Shown here piece after piece: positions 6,816-48,364 of a stretch of 64,000 nt of DNA (position 1 is its first letter; every line of letters begins with the position of its first letter). Below the pieces are notes generated by a model. The model searched no databases. It was not told where the DNA came from and was given only the letters and a program-made list of their open reading frames with translations. Origin of the DNA: Escherichia coli (lineage in GTDB: Bacteria > Pseudomonadota > Gammaproteobacteria > Enterobacterales > Enterobacteriaceae); the NCBI RefSeq assembly GCF_013122565.1, contig NZ_CP053258.1; one strand, given 5' to 3'. The translations under genes were made by a program, and so were the position numbers.

Positions 6816-9800
6816 TTACTCGTTATCAGAACCGCCCAGACCTGCGTTCAGCAGTTCTGCCAGGCTGGCAGATGCGTCTTCTGCAGTCACCTGCGGTGCA
6901 GCCGGAGCTTCACCCGCAGCACGGCGACGCATACGATCCTGGTGGTACGCGTAACCGGTACCTGCAGGGATCAGACGACCCACGATAACGTTCTCTTTCA
7001 GGCCGCGCAGTTCGTCGCGTTTGCCCGCAACGGCTGCTTCGGTCAGCACGCGAGTGGTCTCCTGGAACGATGCCGCGGAGATGAAGGACTCGGTTGCCAG
7101 AGACGCTTTGGTGATACCCAGCAGATCGCGGGAGTAAGTTGCACCCACTTTGCCGTTCGCTTCCAGTTCGCGGTTTGCGATCTTGACGCGAGAGTATTCA
7201 ACCTGTTCGCCTTCCAGGAAGTCGGAGCTGCCCGCGTTAACGATGGTAGCTTTACGCAGCATCTGACGAACGATAACTTCGATGTGTTTATCGTTAATCT
7301 TAACGCCCTGCAGACGGTATACGTCCTGTACTTCGTTAACGATGTAACGAGTAACAGCATGAACACCACGCAGACGCAGAATGTCGTGCGGCGCTTCCGG
7401 ACCGTCGGAAATTACGTCACCACGTTCTACACGTTCACCTTCGAACACGTTGAGCTGACGCCATTTCGGAATCATCTCTTCGTACGGATCGCTACCGTCT
7501 ACCGGGGTGATAACCAGACGACGTTTACCTTTGGTTTCTTTACCGAAGGAAACGATACCGCTGATTTCAGCCAGGATTGCCGGCTCTTTCGGACGACGTG
7601 CTTCGAACAGGTCCGCAACGCGCGGCAGACCACCGGTGATGTCCTTGGTACCGCCGGATTCCTGCGGAATACGCGCCAGGGTGTCACCAGAGCTGATCTG
7701 TACGCCATCTTCCAGCTGAACAATCGCTTTACCCGGCAGGAAGTACTGCGCAGGCATATCGGTACCTGGGATCAGAACGTCGTTACCCTGAGCATCAACG
7801 ATTTTCAGTGCCGGACGCAGATCTTTACCACCTGCGGTACGTTCTGCGGAATCCAGAACCACCAGCGAAGACAGACCGGTCAGTTCGTCGGTCTGACGCG
7901 TAATGGTCTGGCCGTCGATCATGTCAGTAAAGCGTACAAAACCGCTTACTTCGGTGATAACCGGCATGGTGTGCGGGTCCCAGTTTGCAACGGTTTCGCC
8001 GCCAGCAACCTGTTCGCCATCGCCTTTTGCCAGTACCGCACCGTAAGGTACTTTGTAGCTTTCTTTGGTACGACCGAATTCGTCGATCAGTTTCAGTTCG
8101 GTGTTACGGGAAGTGATAACCAGTTTACCGCTGGAGTTCACAACCGACTTCACGTTGCTGAGCTTGATGCTACCTTTGTTTTTCACCTGGATGCTGGATT
8201 CAGCAGCCGCACGTGATGCCGCACCACCGATGTGGAACGTACGCATGGTCAGCTGTGTACCCGGTTCACCGATGGACTGTGCCGCGATAACACCGATTGC
8301 TTCACCCTTGTTGATGATGTGGCCACGCGCCAGGTCACGACCGTAGCAGTGCGCACATACACCAAAGTCGGTGTCACAAGATACAACAGAACGTACTTTA
8401 ACCGCGTCGACAGAGTTCTCTTCCAGCAGGTCACACCACTGTTCGTGCAGCAGCGTGTTGCGCGGAACGAGGATATCAGCAGTACCCGGCTTCAGAACGT
8501 CTTCAGCAGTTACACGACCCAGTACGCGATCGCGCAACGGCTCTTTAACATCACCACCTTCGATAACCGGAGTCATCATGATACCTTCATGGGTACCACA
8601 ATCGTCTTCGGTAACCACCAGGTCCTGCGCCACGTCAACCAGACGACGAGTCAGGTAACCGGAGTTCGCAGTTTTCAGTGCGGTATCCGCCAGACCTTTA
8701 CGAGCACCGTGGGTGGAGATGAAGTACTGGAGTACGTTCAGACCTTCACGGAAGTTCGCGGTGATTGGCGTTTCGATGATGGAGCCATCCGGCTTCGCCA
8801 TCAGACCACGCATACCAGCAAGCTGACGAATCTGTGCCGCAGAACCACGCGCACCGGAGTCGGCCATCATGTAGATGCTGTTGAAGGAAACCTGCTTCTC
8901 TTCCTGACCGTCACGGTTAATCACGGTTTCAGTTTGCAGGTTATCCATCATCGCTTTGGATACACGATCGTTCGCCGCAGCCCAGATATCGATAACTTTG
9001 TTGTAGCGTTCGCCCGCAGTTACCAGACCAGACTGGAACTGCTCCTGAATTTCCGCAACTTCTGCTTCTGCCTCGGAGATGATTTCGTGTTTCTTCTCCG
9101 GGATGACCATGTCATCGATACCAACAGATGCACCAGAACGCGCTGCATATGCAAAGCCGGTGTACATGATCTGGTCCGCAAAAATAACGGTCGGTTTCAG
9201 ACCGAGAATGCGGTAGCAGGTGTTCAGCATTTTGGAGATTGCTTTTTTACCCAGCGCCTGGTTGACGATGGAGTAAGGCAGACCTTTCGGTACAATCATC
9301 CACAGAATGGCACGGCCAACAGTCGTGTCTTTCAGGCTGGTTTTCGCTACTAATTCACCGTTAGCATCTTTTTCATACTCGGTGATACGCACTTTAACGC
9401 GCGCATGCAGAGAAGCCAGACCAGAGCGATACAGACGTTCTGCTTCTTTCGGGCCAGTCAGCACCATGCCTTCGCCTTTGGCGTTAACACAGTCACGGGT
9501 CATGTAGTACAGACCCAGTACAACGTCCTGAGACGGAACGATGATTGGTTCGCCGTTCGCCGGGGACAGGATGTTGTTGGTAGACATCATCAGCGCACGC
9601 GCTTCCAGCTGGGCTTCCAGCGTCAGCGGTACGTGAACAGCCATCTGGTCACCATCGAAGTCGGCGTTATATGCCGCACAAACCAGCGGGTGCAGCTGGA
9701 TAGCTTTACCTTCGATCAGTACCGGTTCAAATGCCTGGATACCCAGACGGTGCAGAGTCGGTGCACGGTTCAGCAGTACCGGGTGTTCGCGGATAACTTC

Positions 9801-11039
9801 GTCCAGGATATCCCAAACGACAGCTTCTTCGCGCTCAACCATTTTCTTCGCAGCTTTAATGGTGGTAGCAAGACCACGCAGTTCCAGCTTGCCGTAGATG
9901 AACGGTTTGAACAGCTCCAGCGCCATTTTCTTCGGCAGACCGCACTGATGCAGACGCAGGTATGGACCCACGGTGATTACAGAACGACCGGAGTAGTCAA
10001 CACGCTTACCGAGCAGGTTCTGACGGAAACGACCCTGTTTACCTTTGATCATGTCGGCCAAAGATTTCAGAGGACGCTTGTTAGAACCGGTGATCGCACG
10101 ACCGCGACGACCGTTATCCAGCAGGGCGTCTACCGCTTCCTGCAGCATACGTTTTTCGTTACGTACGATGATATCCGGCGCAGCCAGATCCAGCAGACGT
10201 TTCAGACGGTTGTTACGGTTAATGACGCGACGATACAGATCGTTCAGGTCAGAAGTCGCGAAACGACCACCATCCAGCGGAACCAGCGGACGCAGATCTG
10301 GCGGCAGTACCGGCAGAACGGTCAGGATCATCCACTCTGGTTTGTTACCAGACTGAACGAACGCTTCCAGTAGTTTGATACGCTTGGTCAGCTTTTTACG
10401 CTTAGTTTCGGAGTTGGTTTCGTTCAGCTCTTCACGCAGCTGTTCGCACTCTTGCTCCAGATCCATGCTCTTCAGCAGAGCCTGGATTGCTTCCGCACCC
10501 ATCTTCGCGTCGAATTCGTCACCGAACTCTTCCAGCGCGTCCAGATACTGCTCTTCAGTCAGGATCTGCTGACGTTCCAGGTTGGTCATACCGCCTTCAA
10601 TAACCACATAGGATTCGAAGTACAGTACGCGTTCGATATCGCGCAGCGGCATATCAAGCAGCAGGCCGATACGGGACGGCAGCGATTTCAGGAACCAGAT
10701 GTGCGCAGTCGGGGAAGCCAGTTCGATGTGGCCCATACGCTCACGGCGTACTTTAGTCTGGGTCACTTCAACGCCGCACTTCTCACAGATAACGCCACGG
10801 TGTTTCAGGCGCTTGTACTTACCGCACAGGCACTCGTAATCTTTTACCGGCCCAAAGATACGGGCGCAGAAAAGGCCGTCACGTTCTGGTTTGAACGTAC
10901 GGTAGTTGATGGTTTCCGGCTTTTTAACTTCACCGAAAGACCATGAACGGATCATGTCTGGCGAAGCCAGAGCAATTTTGATCGCATCAAACTCTTCGGT
11001 TTTAGTCTGCGCTTTCAGAAACTTTAATAAATCTTTCAC
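6816..11039 (-). CDS. rpoC: RNA polymerase beta' subunit
   Basis: 1407 aa ORF; Zn-finger CxxC...CxxC N-terminus and NADFDGD active site. Confidence 0.99.
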
Positions 11040-11115
11040 GGATTTGCTCCCGTCGGAGTTAGCACAATCCGCTGCCGGGTTTTACCCCGACAGCAGTGAC
11101 CTGTTTGAGCGAGAA

Positions 11116-14100
11116 TTACTCGTCTTCCAGTTCGATGTTGATACCCAGCGAACGAATCTCTTTCAACAATACGTTGAAGGATTCTGGCATGCCCGGCTCC
11201 ATCTGATGGTTGCCGTCCACGATGTTCTTATACATCTTGGTACGACCGTTCACGTCATCAGACTTAACGGTGAGCATTTCCTGCAGGGTGTATGCTGCGC
11301 CGTATGCTTCCAGCGCCCACACTTCCATCTCCCCGAAACGCTGACCACCGAACTGTGCCTTACCACCCAGCGGCTGCTGAGTAACCAGGCTGTAAGAACC
11401 GGTGGAACGCGCGTGCATCTTGTCGTCGACCAGGTGGTTCAGTTTCAGCATGTACATGTAACCAACGGTTACCGGACGCTCGAACTGTTCACCAGTGCGG
11501 CCGTCGTACAGGCGGATCTGACCGGAAGTCGGCAGGTCGCCAAGTTTCAGCAGCTCTTTAATTTCTGCTTCTTTCGCACCGTCGAACACCGGCGTTGCGA
11601 TTGGCATACCTTTGCGCAGGTTTTCAGCCAGACGCATAACTTCTTCATCGCTGAAGGTACTCAGGTCAACTTTCTGACGAACGTCAGCGCCCAGATCGTA
11701 CGCACGCTGGATGAATTCGCGCAGTTTCGCGACTTCTTGCTGCTGTTTCAGCATGGCGTTGATCTTGTCGCCGATACCTTTCGCAGCCATACCCAGGTGG
11801 GTTTCGAGGATCTGACCGATGTTCATACGAGACGGTACGCCCAGCGGGTTCAGTACGATGTCTACCGGCGTACCGTTTTCATCGTAAGGCATATCTTCGA
11901 TCGGGTTGATCTTAGAAATTACACCCTTGTTACCGTGACGACCTGCCATCTTGTCACCAGGCTGGATACGGCGTTTAACCGCCAGATATACCTTAACAAT
12001 CTTCAGCACGCCCGGTGCCAGATCGTCGCCCTGGGTGATTTTGCGGCGTTTCGCTTCGAGTTTCTTCTCGAACTCGTGTTTCAGTTCGTCATACTGCTCA
12101 GCCAGCTGTTCCAGCTGATTTTGTTTCTCTTCGTCGGTCAGGCCCAGCTCCAGCCAGCGATCGCGCGGCAGTTTGTCGAGCTTCTCAGCTTCAACGCCAC
12201 CGGCTACCAGCACAGCACGGATACGGCTGAACAGACCCGCTTCGAGGATCTGCAGTTCTTCAGACAGGTCTTTCTTCGCCTGTTTGAGCTGCATTTCTTC
12301 GATTTCCAGCGCACGTTTGTCTTTTTCTACGCCATCGCGAGTAAAGACCTGAACGTCGATAACCGTACCGGATACACCGTTTGGTACGCGCAGAGAAGAG
12401 TCTTTAACGTCAGAGGCTTTCTCACCGAAGATCGCACGCAGCAGTTTTTCTTCTGGGGTCAGCTGAGTTTCACCTTTCGGCGTTACCTTACCAACCAGAA
12501 TGTCGCCACCGGTCACTTCCGCACCAATGTAAACGATACCGGATTCATCCAGTTTGGAGAGCGCAGCTTCACCCACGTTCGGGATGTCAGCGGTGATCTC
12601 TTCCGGCCCCAGCTTGGTGTCACGGGACACACACGCCAGTTCCTGAATGTGGATGGTGGTGAAACGGTCTTCCTGAACAACACGCTCGGATACGAGGATG
12701 GAGTCTTCGAAGTTGTAACCATTCCACGGCATGAACGCTACGCGCATGTTCTGACCAAGCGCCAGTTCACCGAGGTCGGTGGACGGACCGTCTGCCAGCA
12801 CGTCGCCACGTTCAACCGGTTCACCCAGAGACACACACGGCATCTGGTTGATACAGGTGTTCTGGTTAGAACGGGTGTATTTGGTCAGGTTGTAGATGTC
12901 GATACCTGCTTCACCCGGATACATCTCGTCTTCGTTAACTTTGATAACGATACGGGAAGCATCCACGTACTGAACGACACCACCACGTTTAGCTACCGCA
13001 GTTACACCGGAGTCAACGGCAACAGCACGTTCCATACCAGTACCAACCAGCGGCTTATCAGCGCGCAGAGTCGGAACGGCCTGACGTTGCATGTTCGCAC
13101 CCATCAATGCACGGTTGGCGTCATCGTGTTCCAGGAACGGGATCAGGGACGCACCGACGGATACCACCTGCTGGGTGGATACGTCCATGTAGTCAACCTG
13201 GTCGCGGCTGAACAAGCTGGATTCGCCTTTGCTACGGCAAGTTACCAGGTCTTCTACGAAGTGGCCTTCTTCATCCAGGTTGGAGTTCGCCTGGGCGATA
13301 ACGTAGTTGCCTTCTTCGATAGCAGACAGGTAGTGAATTTCGTCAGTTACAACACCGTCGGTCACTTTACGATACGGAGTCTCAAGGAAGCCGTATTCGT
13401 TAGTCTGTGCGTACACGGACAGGGAGTTGATCAGACCGATGTTCGGACCTTCAGGGGTTTCGATTGGACATACGCGACCGTAGTGAGTCGGGTGTACGTC
13501 TCGAACTTCGAAGCCTGCACGTTCACGGGTCAGACCGCCTGGGCCGAGTGCGGAGATACGACGTTTGTGCGTAATCTCAGACAGCGGGTTGTTCTGGTCC
13601 ATAAACTGAGACAGCTGGCTGGAACCGAAGAACTCTTTCACTGCTGCGGAAATCGGCTTGGCGTTGATCATATCCTGAGGCATCAGGGTATCCAGATCGC
13701 CCAGAGACAAACGCTCTTTCACCGCACGCTCTACACGTACCAGACCAACGCGGAACTGGTTTTCCGCCATTTCGCCAACGGAACGGATACGACGGTTGCC
13801 GAGGTGGTCGATATCATCGACTTCGCCTTTACCGTTACGGATATCGATGAGCTTTTTCATAACATCAATGATGTCGTCTTTGCTCAGGATACCGGAACCT
13901 TCGATTTCTTCGCGCAGCAGAGAACGGTTGAACTTCATACGACCAACCGCAGACAGGTCATAACGGTCTTCGGAGAAGAACAGGTTCTCGAACAGGCTTT
14001 CAGCTGCTTCACGAGTCGGCGGCTCGCCAGGGCGCATCATGCGGTAGATTTCTACCAGTGCGCTCAGACGGTCGTTAGTTGGGTCGACACGTAAGGTTTC

Positions 14101-20945: not shown

Positions 20946-21240
20946 TTGTTGGTCACATTTTATGCGACACGATGAAGAAACAGCCGAATGGAGGGCAGAT
21001 TAGCACACTTTTTCAACATGATGTGCTCAACAATGCGCTCCTGCTAAACCATAATTCTTTTTATCAGATGGAATATCTGTCACATTGCTTTTCAACGATA
21101 GCTTCCTGGGAGAGATTTTTTCTTATTATTCCTCCCCATCTGGTGTTACCCTCCTGCCCATTAACCCATTCAACAGAACTGTGACGCGCCATGGCAAATA
21201 TCGCTTTGCCGATAGAGCTATGACCGCCAGAAACATGCTT

Positions 21241-22191
21241 ATGAGTATAAAAGAGCAAACGTTAATGACGCCTTACCTACAGTTTGACCGCAACCAGTGG
21301 GCAGCTCTGCGTGATTCCGTACCTATGACGTTATCGGAAGATGAGATCGCCCGTCTCAAAGGTATTAATGAAGATCTCTCGTTAGAAGAAGTTGCCGAGA
21401 TCTATTTACCTTTGTCACGTTTGCTGAACTTCTATATAAGCTCAAATCTGCGCCGTCAGGCAGTTCTGGAGCAGTTTCTTGGTACCAATGGGCAACGCAT
21501 TCCTTACATTATCAGTATTGCTGGTAGTGTCGCGGTGGGGAAAAGTACAACCGCCCGTGTATTGCAGGCGCTATTAAGCCGTTGGCCGGAACATCGTCGT
21601 GTTGAACTGATCACTACAGATGGCTTCCTTCACCCTAATCAGGTTCTGAAAGAACGAGGTCTGATGAAGAAGAAAGGCTTCCCGGAATCGTATGATATGC
21701 ATCGCCTGGTCAAGTTTGTTTCCGATCTCAAGTCCGGCGTGCCAAACGTTACAGCCCCTGTTTACTCGCATCTTATTTATGATGTGATCCCGGATGGAGA
21801 TAAAACTGTTGTTCAGCCTGATATTTTAATTCTTGAAGGATTAAATGTCTTACAGAGCGGGATGGATTATCCACACGATCCACATCATGTATTTGTTTCT
21901 GATTTTGTCGATTTTTCGATATATGTTGATGCACCGGAAGACTTACTTCAGACGTGGTATATCAACCGTTTTCTGAAATTCCGCGAAGGGGCTTTTACAG
22001 ACCCGGATTCCTATTTTCATAACTACGCGAAATTAACTAAAGAAGAAGCTATTAAGACTGCCATGACATTGTGGAAAGAGATCAACTGGCTGAACTTAAA
22101 GCAAAATATTCTACCTACTCGCGAGCGCGCCAGTTTAATCCTGACGAAAAGTGCTAATCATGCGGTAGAAGAGGTCAGACTACGCAAATAA
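21241..22191 (+). CDS. coaA: pantothenate kinase
   Basis: 316 aa from [20 protein letters not shown]... with P-loop GSVAVGKST; ORF track extends 52 codons upstream. Confidence 0.95.
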
Positions 22192-22197
22192 TTTTCA

Positions 22198-22225
22198 GGG
22201 GAGCTAATGCTCCCCTTTCTTATTT
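22198..22225 (+). terminator. coaA terminator
   Basis: Hairpin aggggagc-taat-gctcccct followed by T-rich tract. Confidence 0.6.
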
Positions 22226-23185
22226 TTATGCACTACGCAGGGATATTTCACCGCCCATCCAGGGTTTTATTATTCCATCCTGCTCAAGCAATAAAGCGCC
22301 CTGTTTGTCTATTCCGCGTGAAATGCCAAATATTTCTTTATCACCAATGATAAGTTTCACTGGGCGATTAATAAAATTATCCAGCTTTTCCCAGCGCGAA
22401 AGATAAGGTGCCAATCCTTCTTGTTCGAAGAGTTCCAGCGCCGCGCGTAATTCACGTATTAGCATGGCCGCCAACGTATTACGATCGAGATTGATCCCCG
22501 CTTCCTGCAGCGTGATCCACCCCTGATTAACGACACTCTCTTCAACACGACGCATTGCCATGTTGATACCGGCTCCAATGACTATTTGCGCCGCATCGCC
22601 GGTTTTACCAGTCAGCTCCACAAGAATGCCTGCCAGCTTGCGATCCTGCAGATAGAGGTCATTAGGCCATTTAACACGAACTTTATCTGCACCCAGCTTG
22701 CGTAATACTTCCGCCATCACGATACCGATAACCAGACTTAAACCAATCGCCGCCGCCGGGCCTTGTTCCAGACGCCAGAACATCGACAAATATAAGTTTG
22801 CGCCAAAAGGCGAAAACCATTTCCGACCCCGGCGACCACGGCCAGCCTGCTGGTATTCTGCAACGCAGGCATCGCCCGATTTAAGCTCTCCGATACGATC
22901 AAGAAAGTACTGATTCGTGGAGTCAATCACTGGCAGCACGGCTACACTACCGCCATCCAGCTGACCCAATATCTGTTTAGCATTAAGTAACTGGATAGGC
23001 TCAGGCAGGCTGTATCCTTTACCCGGAACGGTAAAGACATCAACGCCCCAGTCACGCAGTGTCTGAATGTGTTTATTAATAGCCGCCCGACTCATTCCTA
23101 ACGTTTCACCCAACTGCTCACCTGAGTGAAATTCGCCATTCGCTAACAGCGCGATTAATTTCAGCGGAACGGTATTATCCTTCAT
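22226..23185 (-). CDS. birA: biotin-[acetyl-CoA-carboxylase] ligase / bio operon repressor BirA
   Basis: 319 aa [50 protein letters not shown]... (HTH plus ligase). Confidence 0.97.
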
Positions 23186-24210
23186 GAAATCGTCTCCACT
23201 GCGCTAACTTCACCTGATGCACCAATAAAGCGAACTTCAGGCTCAAGCCAGACATTAAATTTTTCACCCACTTTTTGTCTTACATGGTGCGCCAGTTGCA
23301 CCACATCTTCGCTTTTTGCATTGTCTTCATTAATGAGAACTAACGCCTGTTGACGGTGCACCGCTGCACCACCCATTTGCATCCCTTTTAGCTGGCACTG
23401 ATCGATAAGCCAACCTGCTGCCAGTTTTACTGAACCATCCACCTGGGGGTAATTTGGTGCTGTTGGAAATTGTGCCAGTAATGCTTTAGCCGTTTCGGCA
23501 GACACAACAGGGTTTTTGAAGAAACTACCGGCATTGCCATTCACTTTTGGGTCAGGAAGTTTGGTGGTGCGCATATGACACACCGCATCAAATACTTGCT
23601 GTGGCGTTATTGTTGCAGGATCCAGACGAGTTAAGTCACCATACGTTAGTACAGGTTGCCACTCTTTTGGCAGACGCAGACCTACGGCTACAATGGCGAA
23701 GCGATCCTGGTATTCATGTTTAAAAATACTGTCGCGATAGCCAAAACGGCACTCTTTGGCAGTTAAGCGCACTTGCTTGCCTGTCACCAGTTCAACACAA
23801 TCAACATAAGCGCAAACTCGCTGTAATTCTACGCCATAAGCACCAATATTCTGGATAGGTGATGAGCCGACACAACCAGGAATTAATGCCAGATTTTCCA
23901 GACCTGGCATACCTTCCTGCAAAGTGTATTTTACCAGGCGATGCCAGTTTTCCCCTGCCCCCACATGTAAATACCACGCATCAGGTTCATCATGAATTTC
24001 GATACCTTTGATCCGGTTGATGATCACCGTGCCGCGATAGTCTTCCAGAAAAAGTACATTACTTCCTTCACCCAGAATAAGAGCGGGTTGTCCTTTTGCG
24101 GTTGCATGCTGCCAGGCATTGAGTAGTTGTTGTTCGTCTTCGGCACATACAATGTGCTGAGCATTATGATCAATGCCAAATGTGTTCCAGGGTTTTAAGG
24201 AGTGGTTCAT
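23182..24210 (-). CDS. murB: UDP-N-acetylenolpyruvoylglucosamine reductase MurB
   Basis: 342 aa ORF; 4-bp overlap with birA start. Confidence 0.97.
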
Positions 24211-24302
24211 AGCTGCTTTCCTGATGCAAAAACGAGGCTAGTTTACCGTATCTGCGGGGGGATGGCTTGTAGATATGATGACAGGAAAAGTTTGTAGAAA
24301 CG

Positions 24303-24330
24303 CAAAAAGGCCCAGTCTTCCGACTGAGCC
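24303..24330 (-). terminator. rRNA operon terminator
   Basis: On - strand GGCUCAGUC-GGAA-GACUGGGCC hairpin followed by UUUUUGCG, 15 nt after the 5S 3' end. Confidence 0.75.
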
Positions 24331-24344
24331 TTCTGCTTAATTTG

Positions 24345-24464
24345 ATGCCTGGCAGTTCCCTACTCTCGCATGGGGAGACCCCACACTACCATCGGCGCTA
24401 CGGCGTTTCACTTCTGAGTTCGGCATGGGGTCAGGTGGGACCACCGCGCTACGGCCGCCAGGCA
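24345..24464 (-). rRNA. rrfB: 5S ribosomal RNA
   Basis: 120-nt reverse complement TGCCTGGCGGCCGTAGCGCGGTGGTCCCACCTGACCCCATGCCGAACTCAG...GGGAACTGCCAGGCAT. Confidence 0.97.
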
Positions 24465-24556
24465 AATTCTGTTTTATCAGACCGCTTCTGCGTTCTGATT
24501 TAATCTGTATCAGGCTGAAAATCTTCTCTCATCCGCCAAAACACCTTCGGCGTTGT

Positions 24557-27460
<2,904 letters not shown>

Positions 27461-40833: not shown

Positions 40834-42207
40834 TTACTCTAACCGAGCCTGCGCAAAAGCAATTGCCTGCGCCACCTGCTGCGGTGAGACGCCGCCTTTT
40901 GCCGCACGCTTGTCGAGGCACGATTGTAGCGACAGAATCGGATAGACATCTTCGCCAATCACCTGACTGAATTTCTGCAACTCACTGAGTGGCAGATCTT
41001 CCAGCGGTTTGCCCTGACGAATGGCTTCCACCACCGCTTCACCCACAATATGGTGCGCCTCGCGGAAAGGTACGCCTTTCGCCACCAGGTAATCCGCCAG
41101 TTCGGTGGCGTTGGCGTAACCCTGCTGAGCCGCTTCCTGGCAACGTGGACGTTTCACCTGAATGCCGTCCAGCACCAGCGCCGCCATATGCAGGCAGTCC
41201 AGCCAAGTATCGAGCGCGTCGAACAGACCTTCTTTGTCTTCCTGCATATCTTTGTTGTAAGCCAGCGGCAAACCTTTCAGCGTCATCATCATGCCAGTTA
41301 ACGCGCCCTGCACCCGACCACATTTACCGCGAATCAGCTCCAGCGCATCCGGGTTTTTCTTCTGCGGCATTAATGATGAACCGGAAGTCACGCGGTCAGA
41401 AAGCTCCACAAACCCCGCTTCGCCGGTGTTAAAGAAAATCAGATCTTCAGCAAAACGCGACAGATGCACCATGCCGATAGCGGCAGCAGAAAGCAGTTCC
41501 AGCACGTGGTCACGGTCAGAAACGCTGTCGAGACTGTTACGGGTCGCTGAAGCAAAACCCAGCCAGCCAGCTAACTGTTCACGGTCGATTTCATAAGCCG
41601 TTCCCGCCAGCGCGCCACAGCCTAACGGACTGACATCCAGACGCTTAAGCGCATCCTGCAAACGGCTTTCATCACGCGCCAGCATCTCAACATAGGCCAG
41701 GCACCAGTGCGCGAACGTCACCGGCTGGGCGCGTTGCAGGTGAGTGTAACCTGGCATGACCGCGTCCTGATTGTTTTGTGCGGTTTCCACCAGCGCCGAT
41801 TGCAGCTGCCGGTTAGCCGTCAGCAACTCGCCAACGGTATCTTTGCACCACAGTTTCAGGTCTGTCGCTACCTGATCATTACGACTACGCCCGGTATGCA
41901 GCTTTTTGCCTAACTGGCCCACTTTGTCGATCAGTTTGCCTTCCACCCAGCTATGAATATCTTCGGCGTCGCTTTCGAGGATTTGTTGTGGCCTGGCGCG
42001 AACATCTTCCAGCAGCACGTTCAGCGCCTCTTCCAGTTGCGCCTGCTCTTCTGCGGTTAACACGCCGACCGTTACCAGGGCTTTGGACCAGGCCACAGAG
42101 CCAACAATATCCTGCTCCGCCAGACGGTAATCAAAGCGCAGTGAGTCGTTGAATTGTTTGAACCGTTGATCTGCTGCCTGGGTAAAACGCCCGCCCCAAA
42201 GTGCCAT
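40834..42207 (-). CDS. argH: argininosuccinate lyase
   Basis: 457 aa [40 protein letters not shown]... Confidence 0.98.
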
Positions 42208-42267
42208 AACTCTGTTTCCTTATTTTGAAATTCAATGCCGGAAAGCTGCGCCTCCGGCTAACAAAAC

Positions 42268-43044
42268 TTAAGCTAAAATCCGCGTACCCATCGGCATACC
42301 GTTAAACAGTGCCGGAAGCTGTTCCGCATGACGCCAGGAGGCGATATCTACCGGACGGCCCAACGTGCGCGCAGCATCCAGCGCCGCGTTCACTTTCACT
42401 ATCATGCCGTCAGTAATAATACCCTGCTCAATCAGTTGTTCTGCTTTCGCGGCGGTCATTTCGGCAATACGTTGCCCTTTGCCGTCGAGAATGCCACTGA
42501 CGTCGGAGAGCAAAATCAGATCCGCGCCCAGCGTTGCCGCCAGCGCCGTTGCCGCCTGATCGGCATTGACATTCATCAGTTGCCCTTCGTCTGTTACGCC
42601 AATGGAGCTGACCACCGGCAGATAACCGTTCTCCAGCAAGGTGTTGATAAGCTTAGGCGAACCTGGCTGCGCCAGTCCAACATGGCCTAACTCTTCATCA
42701 AGCTGGGTCACTTTGACGCTGTCGCCGTCACCGAGAAACAAACCTACGGCCGCAATCTGATGTTTCTTCGCCCATGCCAGCAGGGTTTTATTTGCCGTTC
42801 CCGCCAGTGCTCCGGTGATAATGTCTATCTGATCCGCAGGCGTCACCCGCAGGCCGTTTTTCTTTTTCACTGGCAGATTCAGCCCTTTCATCAGCTCATC
42901 CACCACGCAACCGCCGCCGTGGACAATCACCAGCGGACGCTGATGTGACTCACGATAATTCACCAGTGCGCTAAACAGACGTTCCAGCGCCTCTTCACTA
43001 TCCAGCAGTACGCCACCCAGTTTGATAATTAATGGATTCATCAT
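42268..43044 (-). CDS. argB: acetylglutamate kinase
   Basis: 258 aa from [20 protein letters not shown]; ORF track extends 11 codons upstream. Confidence 0.96.
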
Positions 43045-43051
43045 TGCACCC

Positions 43052-44056
43052 TTAAATAAGAGACTGCGTTTCCGCATAGCCGAAACGAATATTGGCGCAC
43101 TGTACCGCTTGTGCCGCCGCGCCTTTCAGTAAGTTGTCTTCGGTCGCCACAATAATCAGATGCTCACCCTGAACGGCAAACCCGATATCGCAAAATGGCA
43201 GCCCAACGACATTTTTCAGCGCCGGAACGCCTTTGTCATACAGACGCACCAGCGGTTTATGGGCATACGCCTGCTGTAATGCCTGCGCCACTTGCGCCTG
43301 GCTCACGCCCGGTTTCAGGCGGCAGGTAATGGTTTCGAGAATGCCGCGCGGGAAATTGCCCAGATGCGGGGTGAAGATAACGTCAGCACCGAGGTGTGTG
43401 GCGATCTCTGGTTGATGGCGATGGGTAAAGACGCCATACGGTTGCAGGCTAACTTCACAAAAACTATTTGAAATCGCTGCCTTACGTCCTGCACCGCTCA
43501 CGCCGCTGGTGGCGTTGATCACTGGCCACTGATTGAGGTCAAGAAGATCGGCATCAATCAACGGTTTCAGCGCCAACTGTGCTGCCGTCGGATAACAGCC
43601 TGGTACCGCAATCAAATTCGCTTCTTTTAATTTATTACCGCACCACTCCGCCAGACCGTAGGCTGCCTGTTCCAGCAGTTCCGGGTATTGATGGGTAAAG
43701 CCGTAATATTTTTCATAGAAGGTGGCGTCGTTAACACGAAACGCGCCGGAAAGGTCGAACACCACGCAGCCCGCTTCAAGAAACTGCGGCGCTAAATCGT
43801 GGCTAACTTCATGGGCAGTGGCGAGAAACACCACGTCCACCCCTGGGCTAAACTCGCTGATATCCGACATCGGCTGCAACGGCAGATCAACGATGCCTTT
43901 TAGCTGCGGATGCAAATCGGAGATTAACTTTCCCGCATCATTGCTTTGCGCTGAAACAGTCAAAGCGGTTATGTTCATATGCGGATGGCGATTTACATAG
44001 GTCACTAGCTCTGCGCCAGCGTAGCCGCTGGCACCCACAATCAGCGTATTCAACAT
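43052..44056 (-). CDS. argC: N-acetyl-gamma-glutamyl-phosphate reductase
   Basis: 334 aa [30 protein letters not shown]... Confidence 0.97.
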
Positions 44057-44139
44057 CGGGGCTATTCACCTTCTTATGTCTGGTTGCCAGGTTAAACGTA
44101 AAACATTCACCTTACGGCTGGTGGGTTTTATTACGCTCA

Positions 44140-44190
44140 ACGTTAGTGTATTTTTATTCATAAATAATGCATGAATATTGATACTATCAT
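44140..44190. promoter_or_regulatory. ArgR operator (ARG boxes) in the divergent argE / argCBH control region
   Basis: A/T-rich tattcat / tgaatat half-site motifs between the divergent starts. Confidence 0.6.
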
Positions 44191-44209
44191 GACCAGAGGT
44201 GTGTCAACA

Positions 44210-45361
44210 ATGAAAAACAAATTACCGCCATTTATCGAGATTTACCGTGCTCTGATTGCCACACCTTCAATAAGCGCCACGGAAGAGGCACTCGATCAAA
44301 GCAATGCAGATTTAATCACTCTGCTGGCGGACTGGTTTAAAGATTTAGGCTTCAATGTGGAAGTGCAGCCTGTGCCAGGAACTCGCAACAAATTTAATAT
44401 GCTGGCCAGTTGCGGACAGGGGGCTGGCGGCTTGTTGCTGGCGGGGCATACCGATACGGTGCCATTTGATGACGGTCGCTGGACGCGCGATCCGTTTACA
44501 CTGACGGAGCATGACGGCAAGCTTTACGGCTTAGGCACCGCCGACATGAAAGGCTTTTTTGCGTTTATCCTCGATGCGCTACGCGATGTCGACGTTACGA
44601 AGCTTGCAAAACCGCTCTACATTCTGGCGACTGCCGATGAAGAAACCAGTATGGCCGGAGCGCGTTATTTTGCCGAAACTACCGCCCTGCGCCCGGATTG
44701 CGCCATCATTGGCGAACCGACGTCACTACAACCGGTACGCGCACATAAAGGTCATATCTCTAACGCCATCCGTATTCAGGGCCAGTCGGGGCACTCCAGC
44801 GATCCAGCACGCGGAGTTAACGCTATCGAACTAATGCACGACGCCATCGGGCATATTTTGCAATTGCGCGATAACCTGAAAGAACGTTATCACTACGAAG
44901 CGTTTACCGTGCCATACCCTACGCTCAACCTCGGGCATATTCACGGTGGCGACGCTTCTAACCGTATTTGCGCTTGCTGTGAGTTGCATATGGATATTCG
45001 TCCGCTGCCTGGCATGACACTCAATGAACTTAATGGTTTGCTCAACGATGCATTGGCTCCGGTGAGCGAACGCTGGCCGGGTCGTCTGACGGTCGACGAG
45101 CTGCATCCGCCGATCCCTGGCTATGAATGCCCACCGAATCATCAACTGGTTGAAGTGGTTGAGAAATTGCTCGGAGCAAAAACCGAAGTGGTGAATTACT
45201 GTACCGAAGCGCCGTTTATTCAAACGTTATGCCCGACGCTGGTTCTGGGGCCTGGCTCAATTAATCAGGCTCATCAGCCTGATGAATATCTGGAAACACG
45301 GTTTATCAAGCCCACCCGCGAACTGATAACCCAGGTAATTCACCATTTTTGCTGGCATTAA
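44210..45361 (+). CDS. argE: acetylornithine deacetylase
   Basis: 383 aa from [23 protein letters not shown]; divergent from argC. Confidence 0.96.
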
Positions 45362-45364
45362 AAC

Positions 45365-45465
45365 GTAGGCCGGATAAGGCGCTCGCGCCGCATCCGGCAC
45401 TGTTGCCAAACGCCAGCGCTGCAATAATGTCGGATGCGATGCTTGCGCATCTTATCCGACCTACG
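45365..45465. repeat. REP/BIME element pair between argE and ppc
   Basis: Inverted REP copies gtaggccggataaggcgctcgcgccgcatccggcac and gtcggatgcgatgcttgcgcatcttatccgacctac. Confidence 0.8.
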
Positions 45466-45712
45466 CCTTTGGTGTTAATTGAGGCGATTTTTTAACATTC
45501 CCATAAGTTACGCTTATTTAAAGCGTCGTGAATTTAATGGCGTAAATTCCTGCTATTTATTCGTTTGCTGAAGCGATTTCGCAGCATTTGACGTCACCGC
45601 TTTTACGTGGCTTTATAAAAGACAACGAAAAGCAAAGCCCGAGCATATTCGCGCCAATGCGACGTGAAGGATACAGGGCTATCAAACGATAAGATGGGGT
45701 GTCTGGGGTAAT

Positions 45713-48364
45713 ATGAACGAACAATATTCCGCATTGCGTAGTAATGTCAGTATGCTCGGCAAAGTGCTGGGAGAAACCATCAAGGATGCGTTGGGAGAAC
45801 ACATTCTTGAACGCGTAGAAACTATCCGTAAGTTGTCCAAATCTTCACGCGCTGGCAATGATGCTAACCGCCAGGAGTTGCTCACCACCTTACAAAATTT
45901 GTCGAACGACGAGCTGCTGCCCGTTGCGCGTGCGTTTAGTCAGTTCCTGAACCTGGCCAACACCGCCGAGCAATACCACAGCATTTCGCCGAAAGGCGAA
46001 GCTGCCAGCAACCCGGAAGTGATCGCCCGCACCCTGCGTAAACTGAAAAACCAGCCGGAACTGAGCGAAGACACCATCAAAAAAGCAGTGGAATCGCTGT
46101 CGCTGGAACTGGTCCTCACGGCTCACCCAACCGAAATTACCCGTCGTACACTGATCCACAAAATGGTGGAAGTGAACGCCTGCTTAAAACAGCTCGATAA
46201 CAAAGATATCGCTGACTACGAACACAACCAGCTGATGCGTCGCCTGCGCCAGTTGATCGCCCAGTCATGGCATACCGATGAAATCCGTAAGCTGCGTCCA
46301 AGCCCGGTAGATGAAGCCAAATGGGGCTTTGCCGTAGTAGAAAACAGCCTGTGGCAAGGCGTACCGAATTACCTGCGCGAACTGAACGAACAACTGGAAG
46401 AGAACCTCGGCTACAAACTGCCCGTCGAATTTGTTCCGGTGCGTTTTACCTCGTGGATGGGCGGTGACCGCGACGGCAACCCAAACGTCACTGCCGATAT
46501 CACCCGCCACGTCCTGCTACTCAGCCGCTGGAAAGCCACCGATCTGTTCCTGAAAGATATTCAGGTTCTGGTTTCTGAACTGTCGATGGTTGAAGCGACC
46601 CCTGAACTGCTGGCGCTGGTTGGCGAAGAAGGTGCCGCAGAACCGTATCGCTATCTGATGAAAAACCTGCGTTCTCGCCTGATGGCGACACAGGCATGGC
46701 TGGAAGCGCGCCTGAAAGGCGAAGAACTGCCAAAACCAGAAGGCCTGCTGACACAAAACGAAGAACTGTGGGAACCGCTCTACGCTTGCTACCAGTCACT
46801 TCAGGCGTGTGGCATGGGTATTATCGCCAATGGCGATCTGCTCGACACCCTGCGCCGCGTGAAATGTTTCGGCGTACCGCTGGTCCGTATTGATATCCGT
46901 CAGGAGAGCACACGTCATACCGAAGCGCTGGGCGAGCTGACCCGCTACCTCGGTATCGGCGACTACGAAAGCTGGTCAGAGGCCGACAAACAGGCGTTCC
47001 TGATCCGCGAACTGAACTCCAAACGTCCGCTTCTGCCGCGCAACTGGCAACCAAGCGCCGAAACGCGCGAAGTGCTCGATACCTGCCAGGTGATTGCCGA
47101 AGCGCCGCAAGGCTCCATTGCCGCCTACGTGATCTCGATGGCGAAAACGCCGTCCGACGTGCTGGCTGTCCACCTGCTGCTGAAAGAAGCGGGTATCGGG
47201 TTTGCAATGCCGGTTGCTCCGCTGTTTGAAACCCTCGATGACCTGAACAACGCCAACGATGTCATGACCCAGCTGCTCAATATCGACTGGTATCGCGGCC
47301 TGATTCAGGGCAAACAGATGGTGATGATTGGCTATTCCGACTCAGCAAAAGATGCGGGCGTGATGGCAGCGTCCTGGGCGCAATATCAGGCACAGGATGC
47401 ATTAATCAAAACCTGCGAAAAAGCGGGTATTGAGCTGACGTTGTTCCACGGTCGCGGCGGTTCCATTGGTCGTGGCGGCGCACCTGCTCATGCGGCGCTG
47501 CTGTCACAACCGCCAGGAAGCCTGAAAGGTGGCCTGCGCGTGACTGAACAGGGCGAGATGATCCGCTTTAAATATGGTCTGCCAGAAATCACCGTCAGCA
47601 GCCTGTCGCTGTACACCGGGGCGATTCTGGAAGCCAACCTGCTGCCACCACCTGAGCCGAAAGAGAGCTGGCGTCGCATTATGGATGAACTGTCAGTCAT
47701 CTCCTGCGATCTCTACCGTGGCTACGTACGTGAAAACAAAGATTTTGTGCCTTACTTCCGCTCCGCTACGCCGGAACAAGAACTGGGCAAACTGCCGTTG
47801 GGTTCACGTCCGGCGAAACGTCGCCCAACCGGCGGCGTCGAGTCACTACGCGCCATTCCGTGGATCTTCGCCTGGACGCAAAACCGCCTGATGCTCCCCG
47901 CCTGGCTGGGTGCAGGAACAGCGCTGCAAAAAGTGGTCGAAGACGGCAAACAGAGCGAGCTGGAGGCTATGTGCCGCGATTGGCCATTCTTCTCGACGCG
48001 TCTCGGCATGCTGGAGATGGTCTTCGCCAAAGCAGATCTGTGGCTAGCGGAATACTATGACCAACGCCTGGTAGACAAAGCACTGTGGCCGTTAGGTAAA
48101 GAGTTACGCAATCTGCAAGAAGAAGACATCAAAGTGGTGCTGGCGATTGCCAACGATTCCCATCTGATGGCCGATCTGCCGTGGATTGCAGAGTCTATTC
48201 AGCTACGGAATATTTACACCGACCCGCTGAACGTATTGCAGGCCGAGTTGCTGCACCGCTCCCGCCAGGCAGAAAAAGAAGGCCAGGAACCGGATCCTCG
48301 CGTCGAACAAGCGTTAATGGTCACTATTGCCGGGATTGCGGCAGGTATGCGTAATACCGGCTAA
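45713..48364 (+). CDS. ppc: phosphoenolpyruvate carboxylase
   Basis: 883 aa [39 protein letters not shown]... ending ...MRNTG. Confidence 0.99.

Follow-up and report, generated by a model that had tools for sequence, protein, structure and literature searches.

The window analyzed here is a 64-kb stretch (64,000 nucleotides) of an Escherichia coli genome, and it contains the 3′ end of an rRNA operon on the minus strand. Rfam locates 23S rRNA from position 24557 upward and matches 5S rRNA at 24347-24462 (RF00001, 92.8 bits). The complete 5S gene lies in the rrfB position at 24345-24464 (minus strand) and is 120 nt long, with a C at position 12. The next open reading frame after 5S on this strand (23182-24210, ATG at 24210-24208) encodes 342 aa, and its counterpart is labelled murB in every matching E. 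coli genome. Downstream of murB are birA (22226-23185, minus strand; the matching regions of E. coli genomes are annotated as murB and birA), coaA, four tRNA genes, and tufB. This gene order identifies the rRNA operon as the rrnB locus.

The spacer between 5S and murB comprises 134 nt (24211-24344), in agreement with the estimate of a preceding sequence-only reading; the rrfB-murB spacer of K-12 MG1655 is 300 nt. All elements of the window spacer lie on the minus strand and are described here from the 5S side. A single copy of AACTGCCAGGCATCAAAT, read directly at 24340-24357, consists of the last 13 nt of 5S and 5 nt of trailer. Its position coincides with the gap in the alignment with K-12, which makes it the site where a unit of terminator T1 plus the repeat rrB is present or absent. 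The A/U-rich linker CAAATTAAGCAGAA (24331-24344) fills the distance between 5S and the hairpin. It is a T2-type flank, identical to that of K-12 rrnB T2, and its last 6 nt lengthen the terminator stem in the computed fold. The terminator hairpin GGCTCAGTC-GGAA-GACTGGGCC (24309-24330) has 9 bp, including one U·G pair, and a GNRA-type loop; the 5′ arm GGCTCAGTC covers 24330-24322, the loop GGAA 24321-24318, and the 3′ arm GACTGGGCC 24317-24309. Directly 3′ of the hairpin is TTTTTGCG (24308-24301), and the U-tract TTTTTGCGTTTCT extends over 24296-24308, identical to the tail of K-12 rrnB T2 and with the same T-tract score of 4.05. About 85 nt more separate TTTTTGCGTTTCTACAAAC, a longer stretch after the hairpin, from the murB ATG.

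The murB-proximal end of the spacer (24211-24251, minus strand) is a conserved block composed of ATACGGTAAACTA and TTTTGCATCAGGA. In an alignment of 81 Enterobacteriaceae loci, the columns of both are at least 90% identical, and the stretch from there up to the terminator is free to vary. The block includes a −10-like TAAACT at 24245-24240 and a Shine-Dalgarno AGGA at 24222-24219. A consensus promoter scan of 23800-24800 returned no sigma-70 match. The block is likely to represent the −10 region of murB and a 5′ UTR with its Shine-Dalgarno sequence, the promoter function being putative. One departure from this layout is seen in the species representative Escherichia sp. MOD1-EC7003 (L016, 1-421), in which other sequence precedes the conserved murB leader: an insertion with an ORF and a REP-like palindrome stand where the terminator and 5S would be.

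The hairpin has the features of an intrinsic terminator, and it is the single one in the spacer, as the sequence-only reading had proposed. Folded as RNA with its flanks, the region has a free energy of −23.8 kcal/mol (z = −5.2), and none of 200 dinucleotide shuffles is as stable. The stem of 9 bp contains six G-C pairs, the U-tract begins at the first base past the stem, and the hairpin starts 14 nt past the 3′ end of 5S on the minus strand, which also encodes 23S and 5S. The 134-nt spacer contains neither a second tandem hairpin, as in the T1-rrB-T2 arrangement, nor a second copy of AACTGCCAGGCATCAAAT, the hallmark of a tRNA-linked repeat (TLR).

Pairing of the stem is kept in relatives. Among 17 distinct variants, drawn from at least six genera, the paired fraction of cells is 99.5%; two stem pairs are changed on both sides, and two variable stem positions alternate between G-C, A-U, and G-U. 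Shifting the partner columns by one position lowers pairing to 55-65%. Because the variants are close to one another, covariation gives a modest signal, and the observed measures were reached in 14 to 19 of 500 shuffles. Scores of the d'Aubenton-Carafa type, computed after d'Aubenton-Carafa et al. 1990 and used for relative comparison only, are 26.0 for the window hairpin, 27.6 for K-12 T2, 14.6 for the K-12 T1 core, and 25-31 for the K-12 rrnG and rrnE terminators. On the basis of this score and the kept pairing, the hairpin is expected to be an efficient intrinsic terminator; termination, its efficiency, and the read-through into murB are predictions.

A consensus terminator scan of 23800-24800 did not call the window hairpin (24296-24336). 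Applied to the K-12 locus (L001), the same scanner reports T1 (361-404) and misses T2 (538-561). As T2 of K-12 is experimentally established, we regard the miss in the window as a limit of the tool. The scanner probably overlooks T2-type terminators since it extends their stems by A-U and G-U pairing and so consumes the T-run, and its negatives at such terminators are not to be trusted.

The T1-T2 arrangement of K-12 rrnB is the textbook form of this locus and has been reused in very many cloning vectors. The sequence-only reading had described a K-12 spacer of roughly 300 bp with T1, T2, and a partial 5S-like repeat, and had allowed that the window might prove the same in length and sequence. 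The MG1655 spacer is indeed 300 nt long and consists of T1, a 168-bp unit, and T2, with AACTGCCAGGCATCAAAT occurring twice (start-to-start distance 168) as an 18-bp repeat of the 5S 3′ end. Pairwise alignment shows that the two spacers differ, 300 versus 134 nt, with a gap of 166-168 nt in the window. The alignment also bears out the description of the window terminator as T2 flanks around a T1-like stem. T2-type flanks (TTAAGCAGAAGGC ... TTTTTGCGTTTCTACAAAC) enclose a T1-type stem, and all 22 nt of the stem-loop, GGAA included, agree with the T1 core in K-12 rrnA and rrnD (22/22). According to Orosz et al. 1991, as cited in PMC8144298, termination in K-12 amounts to 87% at T1 and 100% at T2.

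Of the K-12 terminators, rrnB T2 shares its position with the window hairpin: both lie upstream of murB, and the downstream spacer is colinear as far as murB. No base differs in the 5′ flank CAAATTAAGCAGAAGGC, the U-tract, or GGCCTTTTTGCGTTTCTACAAAC further downstream, and the two hairpins are of similar predicted stability (−22.7 kcal/mol for T2 versus −23.8 kcal/mol). The cores differ, with GGCCATCC-TGAC-GGATGGCC in T2 and the T1-flavored GGCTCAGTC-GGAA-GACTGGGCC in the window, and T2 sits after rrB whereas the window hairpin directly follows 5S. The window element thus has the position and flanks of a T2 allele without the T2 hairpin sequence GGCCATCC/GGATGGCC. K-12 rrnB T1 also directly follows 5S, and its GAAA loop is one base away from GGAA. 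T1, however, has a long A-rich/U-rich extension (AAAACGAAA...UUUCGUUUU) that yields a 20-bp stem (−32.6 kcal/mol) and is missing from the window. Where T1 has UUUCGUUUU, the window has an uninterrupted run of five U, and no rrB lies behind the window hairpin. The same architecture as in the window is found at the 3′ end of K-12 rrnG, with 5S, a short A/U linker, one T2-type hairpin, five U, and no TLR; the rrnG hairpin is of the CATCC/GGATG flavor, and its downstream sequence is unrelated to that of the window. Elsewhere in K-12, T1, an rrB-type segment, and T2 are arranged in tandem at rrnA, rrnB, and rrnD (behind rrfA, rrfB, and rrfF), rrnE ends in a terminator of its own, and the 3′ ends of rrnC and rrnH lead on into tRNA genes.

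By alignment, the length difference of 166-168 bp between K-12 and the window corresponds to T1 plus rrB. The latter is a tRNA-linked repeat located between T1 and T2 of rrnB and is reported as an sRNA, RrB (Stenum et al. 2021, PMC8144298). The hallmark of such repeats is an 18-19-bp copy of the 3′ end of the upstream gene; RrB is produced by read-through of T1 and binds Hfq and CsrA, and the rrA/B/F sRNAs are called well conserved, with weak deletion phenotypes (PMC8144298). Of the 18-bp sequence bounding the unit, one copy remains in the window, and rrB itself is missing. The rrB core has no match anywhere in the 64-kb window with up to three mismatches allowed, so the rrnB operon of the window cannot make RrB. 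For the K-12 inter-terminator segment, an origin as a decayed 5S gene was considered and rejected: with the last 13 nt removed, its global alignment to 5S is no better than that of shuffled sequences (415 of 1000 as good). Rfam searches of the window and K-12 spacers at E ≤ 1 yield 5S and insignificant sRNA matches only, and ARAGORN finds no tRNA in the K-12 spacer.

To place these two forms within the species, allele counts were derived from coverage and identity bands over 5,426 complete E. coli genomes. The long form was queried with a 301-nt K-12 sequence spanning rrB, T2, and the murB start, counting matches with a coverage of at least 80%. It is present at murB in 2,517 of the 5,426 genomes, and all others match from the repeat onward only. 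Two kinds of short allele are distinguished. In a pure-T2 allele, found in about 500 genomes and 100% identical to the query from the repeat onward, 5S is joined directly to the T2 hairpin (strain 537-20 is an example). A hybrid-type allele accounts for 2,286 records in the 90-95% identity band; it is 93-94% identical and 2 nt longer, and it combines a T1-flavored hairpin with T2 flanks. Within this type, O157:H7 has GGCCCGGTC in the 5′ arm, and further variants occur in strains 120899, 9, and O145.

At a coverage of at least 80%, 1,550 genomes match the 61-nt terminator of the window itself. Of these, 1,209 are 95-99% identical, with one or two mismatches in the examples listed. An exact match (61/61) is found in one genome among the 5,426, strain MEW (NZ_CM192120.1). 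In the MEW locus (L091, 1320-1646), the spacer is long and includes T1 and rrB, and the 61-nt terminator of the window occupies the T2 position. The MEW allele is a possible parent or derivative of the window allele. Because about half of the sequenced E. coli share the short form, the single-terminator form is a common natural allele and not an anomaly. In our literature search, no account of naturally varying rrnB terminators came up.

The TLR sequences are themselves unevenly distributed. Searched with the K-12 segment L001:400-512, rrA/B/F-type sequence is detected in 3,945 of the 5,426 complete E. coli genomes, with megablast and blastn giving the same result. Positive genomes have one to nine such places (median 2), and the remaining 1,481 genomes (27%) have none.

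Outside E. coli, the murB loci of 80 species-representative genomes were compared, 31 of which are cut before 5S by assembly breaks. The 5S-murB junction could be verified in 41 Enterobacteriaceae species. In 38 of these, one copy of the 5S-end motif is present, together with a short spacer and a single terminator; Kluyvera genomosp. 3, Enterobacter sp. CC120223-11, and Raoultella ornithinolytica have two copies. All three verifiable Escherichia other than E. coli are short (strain E69, Escherichia sp. E1V33, and E. whittamii). A T1-flavored hairpin with a T2-type tail occurs at the murB locus of E. whittamii, Citrobacter amalonaticus, and Kosakonia oryzendophytica, and the E. albertii contig begins just before a related hairpin. 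Parsimony over the species representatives suggests that the single terminator is probably the usual and older state at murB; with this inferred polarity, the K-12 arrangement would reflect the presence of a TLR at rrnB. Within E. coli, long and short states are both found on both downstream haplotypes, represented by K-12 and 537-20 on one side and by MEW and O157-O145 on the other. Gain or loss must therefore have occurred more than once.

The 5S gene of the window also departs from that of K-12 rrnB, as the sequence-only reading had noted. All 120 nt are identical to K-12 rrfC, rrfD, rrfG, and rrfH, and the sole difference from rrfB is at position 12 (C in the window, A in K-12 rrfB). On this comparison, C12 is simply the form common to four K-12 5S genes. 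Positions 12-13 (window 24452-24453) vary among rrnB alleles, with AG in K-12 rrfB, CG in the window, and CT in O157, O145, 537-20, and strain 9; among genera, TT, AC, GA, and TG are observed. The A12 form of K-12 is carried by rrfA, rrfB, rrfE, and rrfF, three of which precede a T1 plus TLR unit.

The relatedness of the window to sequenced strains was assessed with three segments (8000-14000, 21000-24346, and 42000-48000). The best identities among the 5,426 complete E. coli genomes are 98.3% for murB-birA-coaA, 98.8% for ppc-argECBH, and 99.5% for rpoBC, and the O157:H7 lineage is nearest. At the murB locus, the window is 95.8% identical to E. albertii. The exact MurB protein of the window has no record in a collection of 15 billion proteins. 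The window seems to come from an E. coli-complex lineage with sparse coverage in public data.

Taken with the allele counts and the species comparison, the anatomy, fold, and kept pairing of the hairpin very probably define the window element as the natural short-form end of the murB-linked rrnB operon, with one Rho-independent terminator directly after 5S. It is an element of a known kind that works in a known way, and no new mechanism is called for. RNA polymerase transcribing rrnB would form the 9-bp GC-rich hairpin with its GGAA loop, lengthened by about six flanking pairs, and would then reach the run of five U, releasing the transcript some 45-50 nt past 5S. The 5S precursor would be released by RNase E cleavage within CAAAUUAAG, the linker that joins 5S to the hairpin. 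This linker is A/U-rich and single-stranded in the fold, and by analogy with 9S RNA processing (PMC8144298) it is likely to be the RNase E site for 5S 3′ maturation. As the rest of the spacer holds the conserved promoter-like block of murB, the terminator would shield murB-birA from very heavy rRNA transcription.

The same reading offers an account of the differences from K-12. Since a genome may carry a T1 plus rrB unit at as many as three of its rrn operons, this unit, bounded by the 18-bp repeat of the 5S 3′ end, can be lost by recombination between the repeats or gained by exchange between operons. Two hairpin flavors next to murB, CAGTC/GACTG and CATCC/GGATG, circulate among the rrn 3′ ends of Escherichia and other Enterobacteriaceae. 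The hybrid look of the window terminator would then arise because the terminator next to murB comes in two hairpin flavors.

How the window came by this hairpin can be explained in other ways. A short-patch gene conversion, in which an rrnB end with a T2 hairpin took up the T1 stem-loop alone from rrnA or rrnD through the AAGGC and GGCCTTT edges common to both, is possible but less likely than not. The 22-nt stem-loop, including GGAA, matches the T1 core of K-12 rrnA and rrnD, the loop of K-12 rrnB T1 itself being GAAA, and the flanks remain T2-type on both sides. The rrn operons are, moreover, known to exchange sequence. Against a conversion particular to this genome, the same flavor stands in a T2-type context at murB in E. 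whittamii, C. amalonaticus, Kosakonia, and one Enterobacteriaceae isolate. If a conversion took place, it is therefore an old or recurrent event rather than one peculiar to the window genome, and gene conversion is compatible with, rather than opposed to, the explanation by a natural short allele.

The sequence-only reading had pointed to a deletion through recombination between the AACTGCCAGGCATCAAAT repeats, by which a tandem T1-T2 ancestor would have lost T1 and the inter-terminator segment. As a recent event, this proposal holds for one kind of donor and fails for another, and we consider it unlikely. The 18-bp repeats that it requires are present in long alleles, events of this kind do recur, as seen from the finding of both states on two haplotypes, and one crossover in the long allele of MEW, with its 61/61 terminator in the T2 position, would yield exactly the window sequence. 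A crossover in a K-12-like allele, in contrast, joins 5S to the intact T2 hairpin (GGCCATCCTGACGGATGGCC); the product is the pure-T2 allele of 537-20 and not the window hairpin. The MEW-type donor is the sole exact match among 5,426 genomes. Short single-terminator spacers also prevail in the outgroups (38/41) and in Escherichia other than E. coli, and the downstream haplotype of the window (CATCAT...CGCAG) is the one common to E. albertii and strain E69. Collapse of repeats during assembly, either between the 18-bp repeats or between rrn operons, is most improbable: the 3′ ends of rrn operons are repetitive and a frequent breakpoint of draft contigs (31/80 loci cut before 5S), but the same 134-nt spacer is found gap-free in well over 1,000 complete E. 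coli genomes, most of them from long reads, as well as in other species, and a collapse would not produce a hairpin different from T2.

Beyond the natural short allele as such, T1 plus rrB could be regarded as a cassette that is recurrently gained and lost and whose presence at rrnB is under selection. We think this improbable; it draws support from the 27% of genomes without rrA/B/F-type sequence and from the occurrence of both rrnB states on more than one haplotype. If true, loss of the cassette would remove one dose of a growth-rate-coupled sRNA, RrB. It would also place murB-birA behind a single terminator, with altered rRNA-driven read-through into genes for cell-wall synthesis and biotin control.

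For the organism and its relatives, the comparison indicates that the T1-T2 arrangement of K-12 is not the norm at rrnB, where a single terminator is found in just over half of the complete E. coli genomes and in most related species. The rrA/B/F sequences are variable in copy number, and roughly one in four complete E. coli genomes has none that can be detected. This patchiness fits the weak deletion phenotypes reported in PMC8144298 and should temper claims on a general role of these sRNAs.
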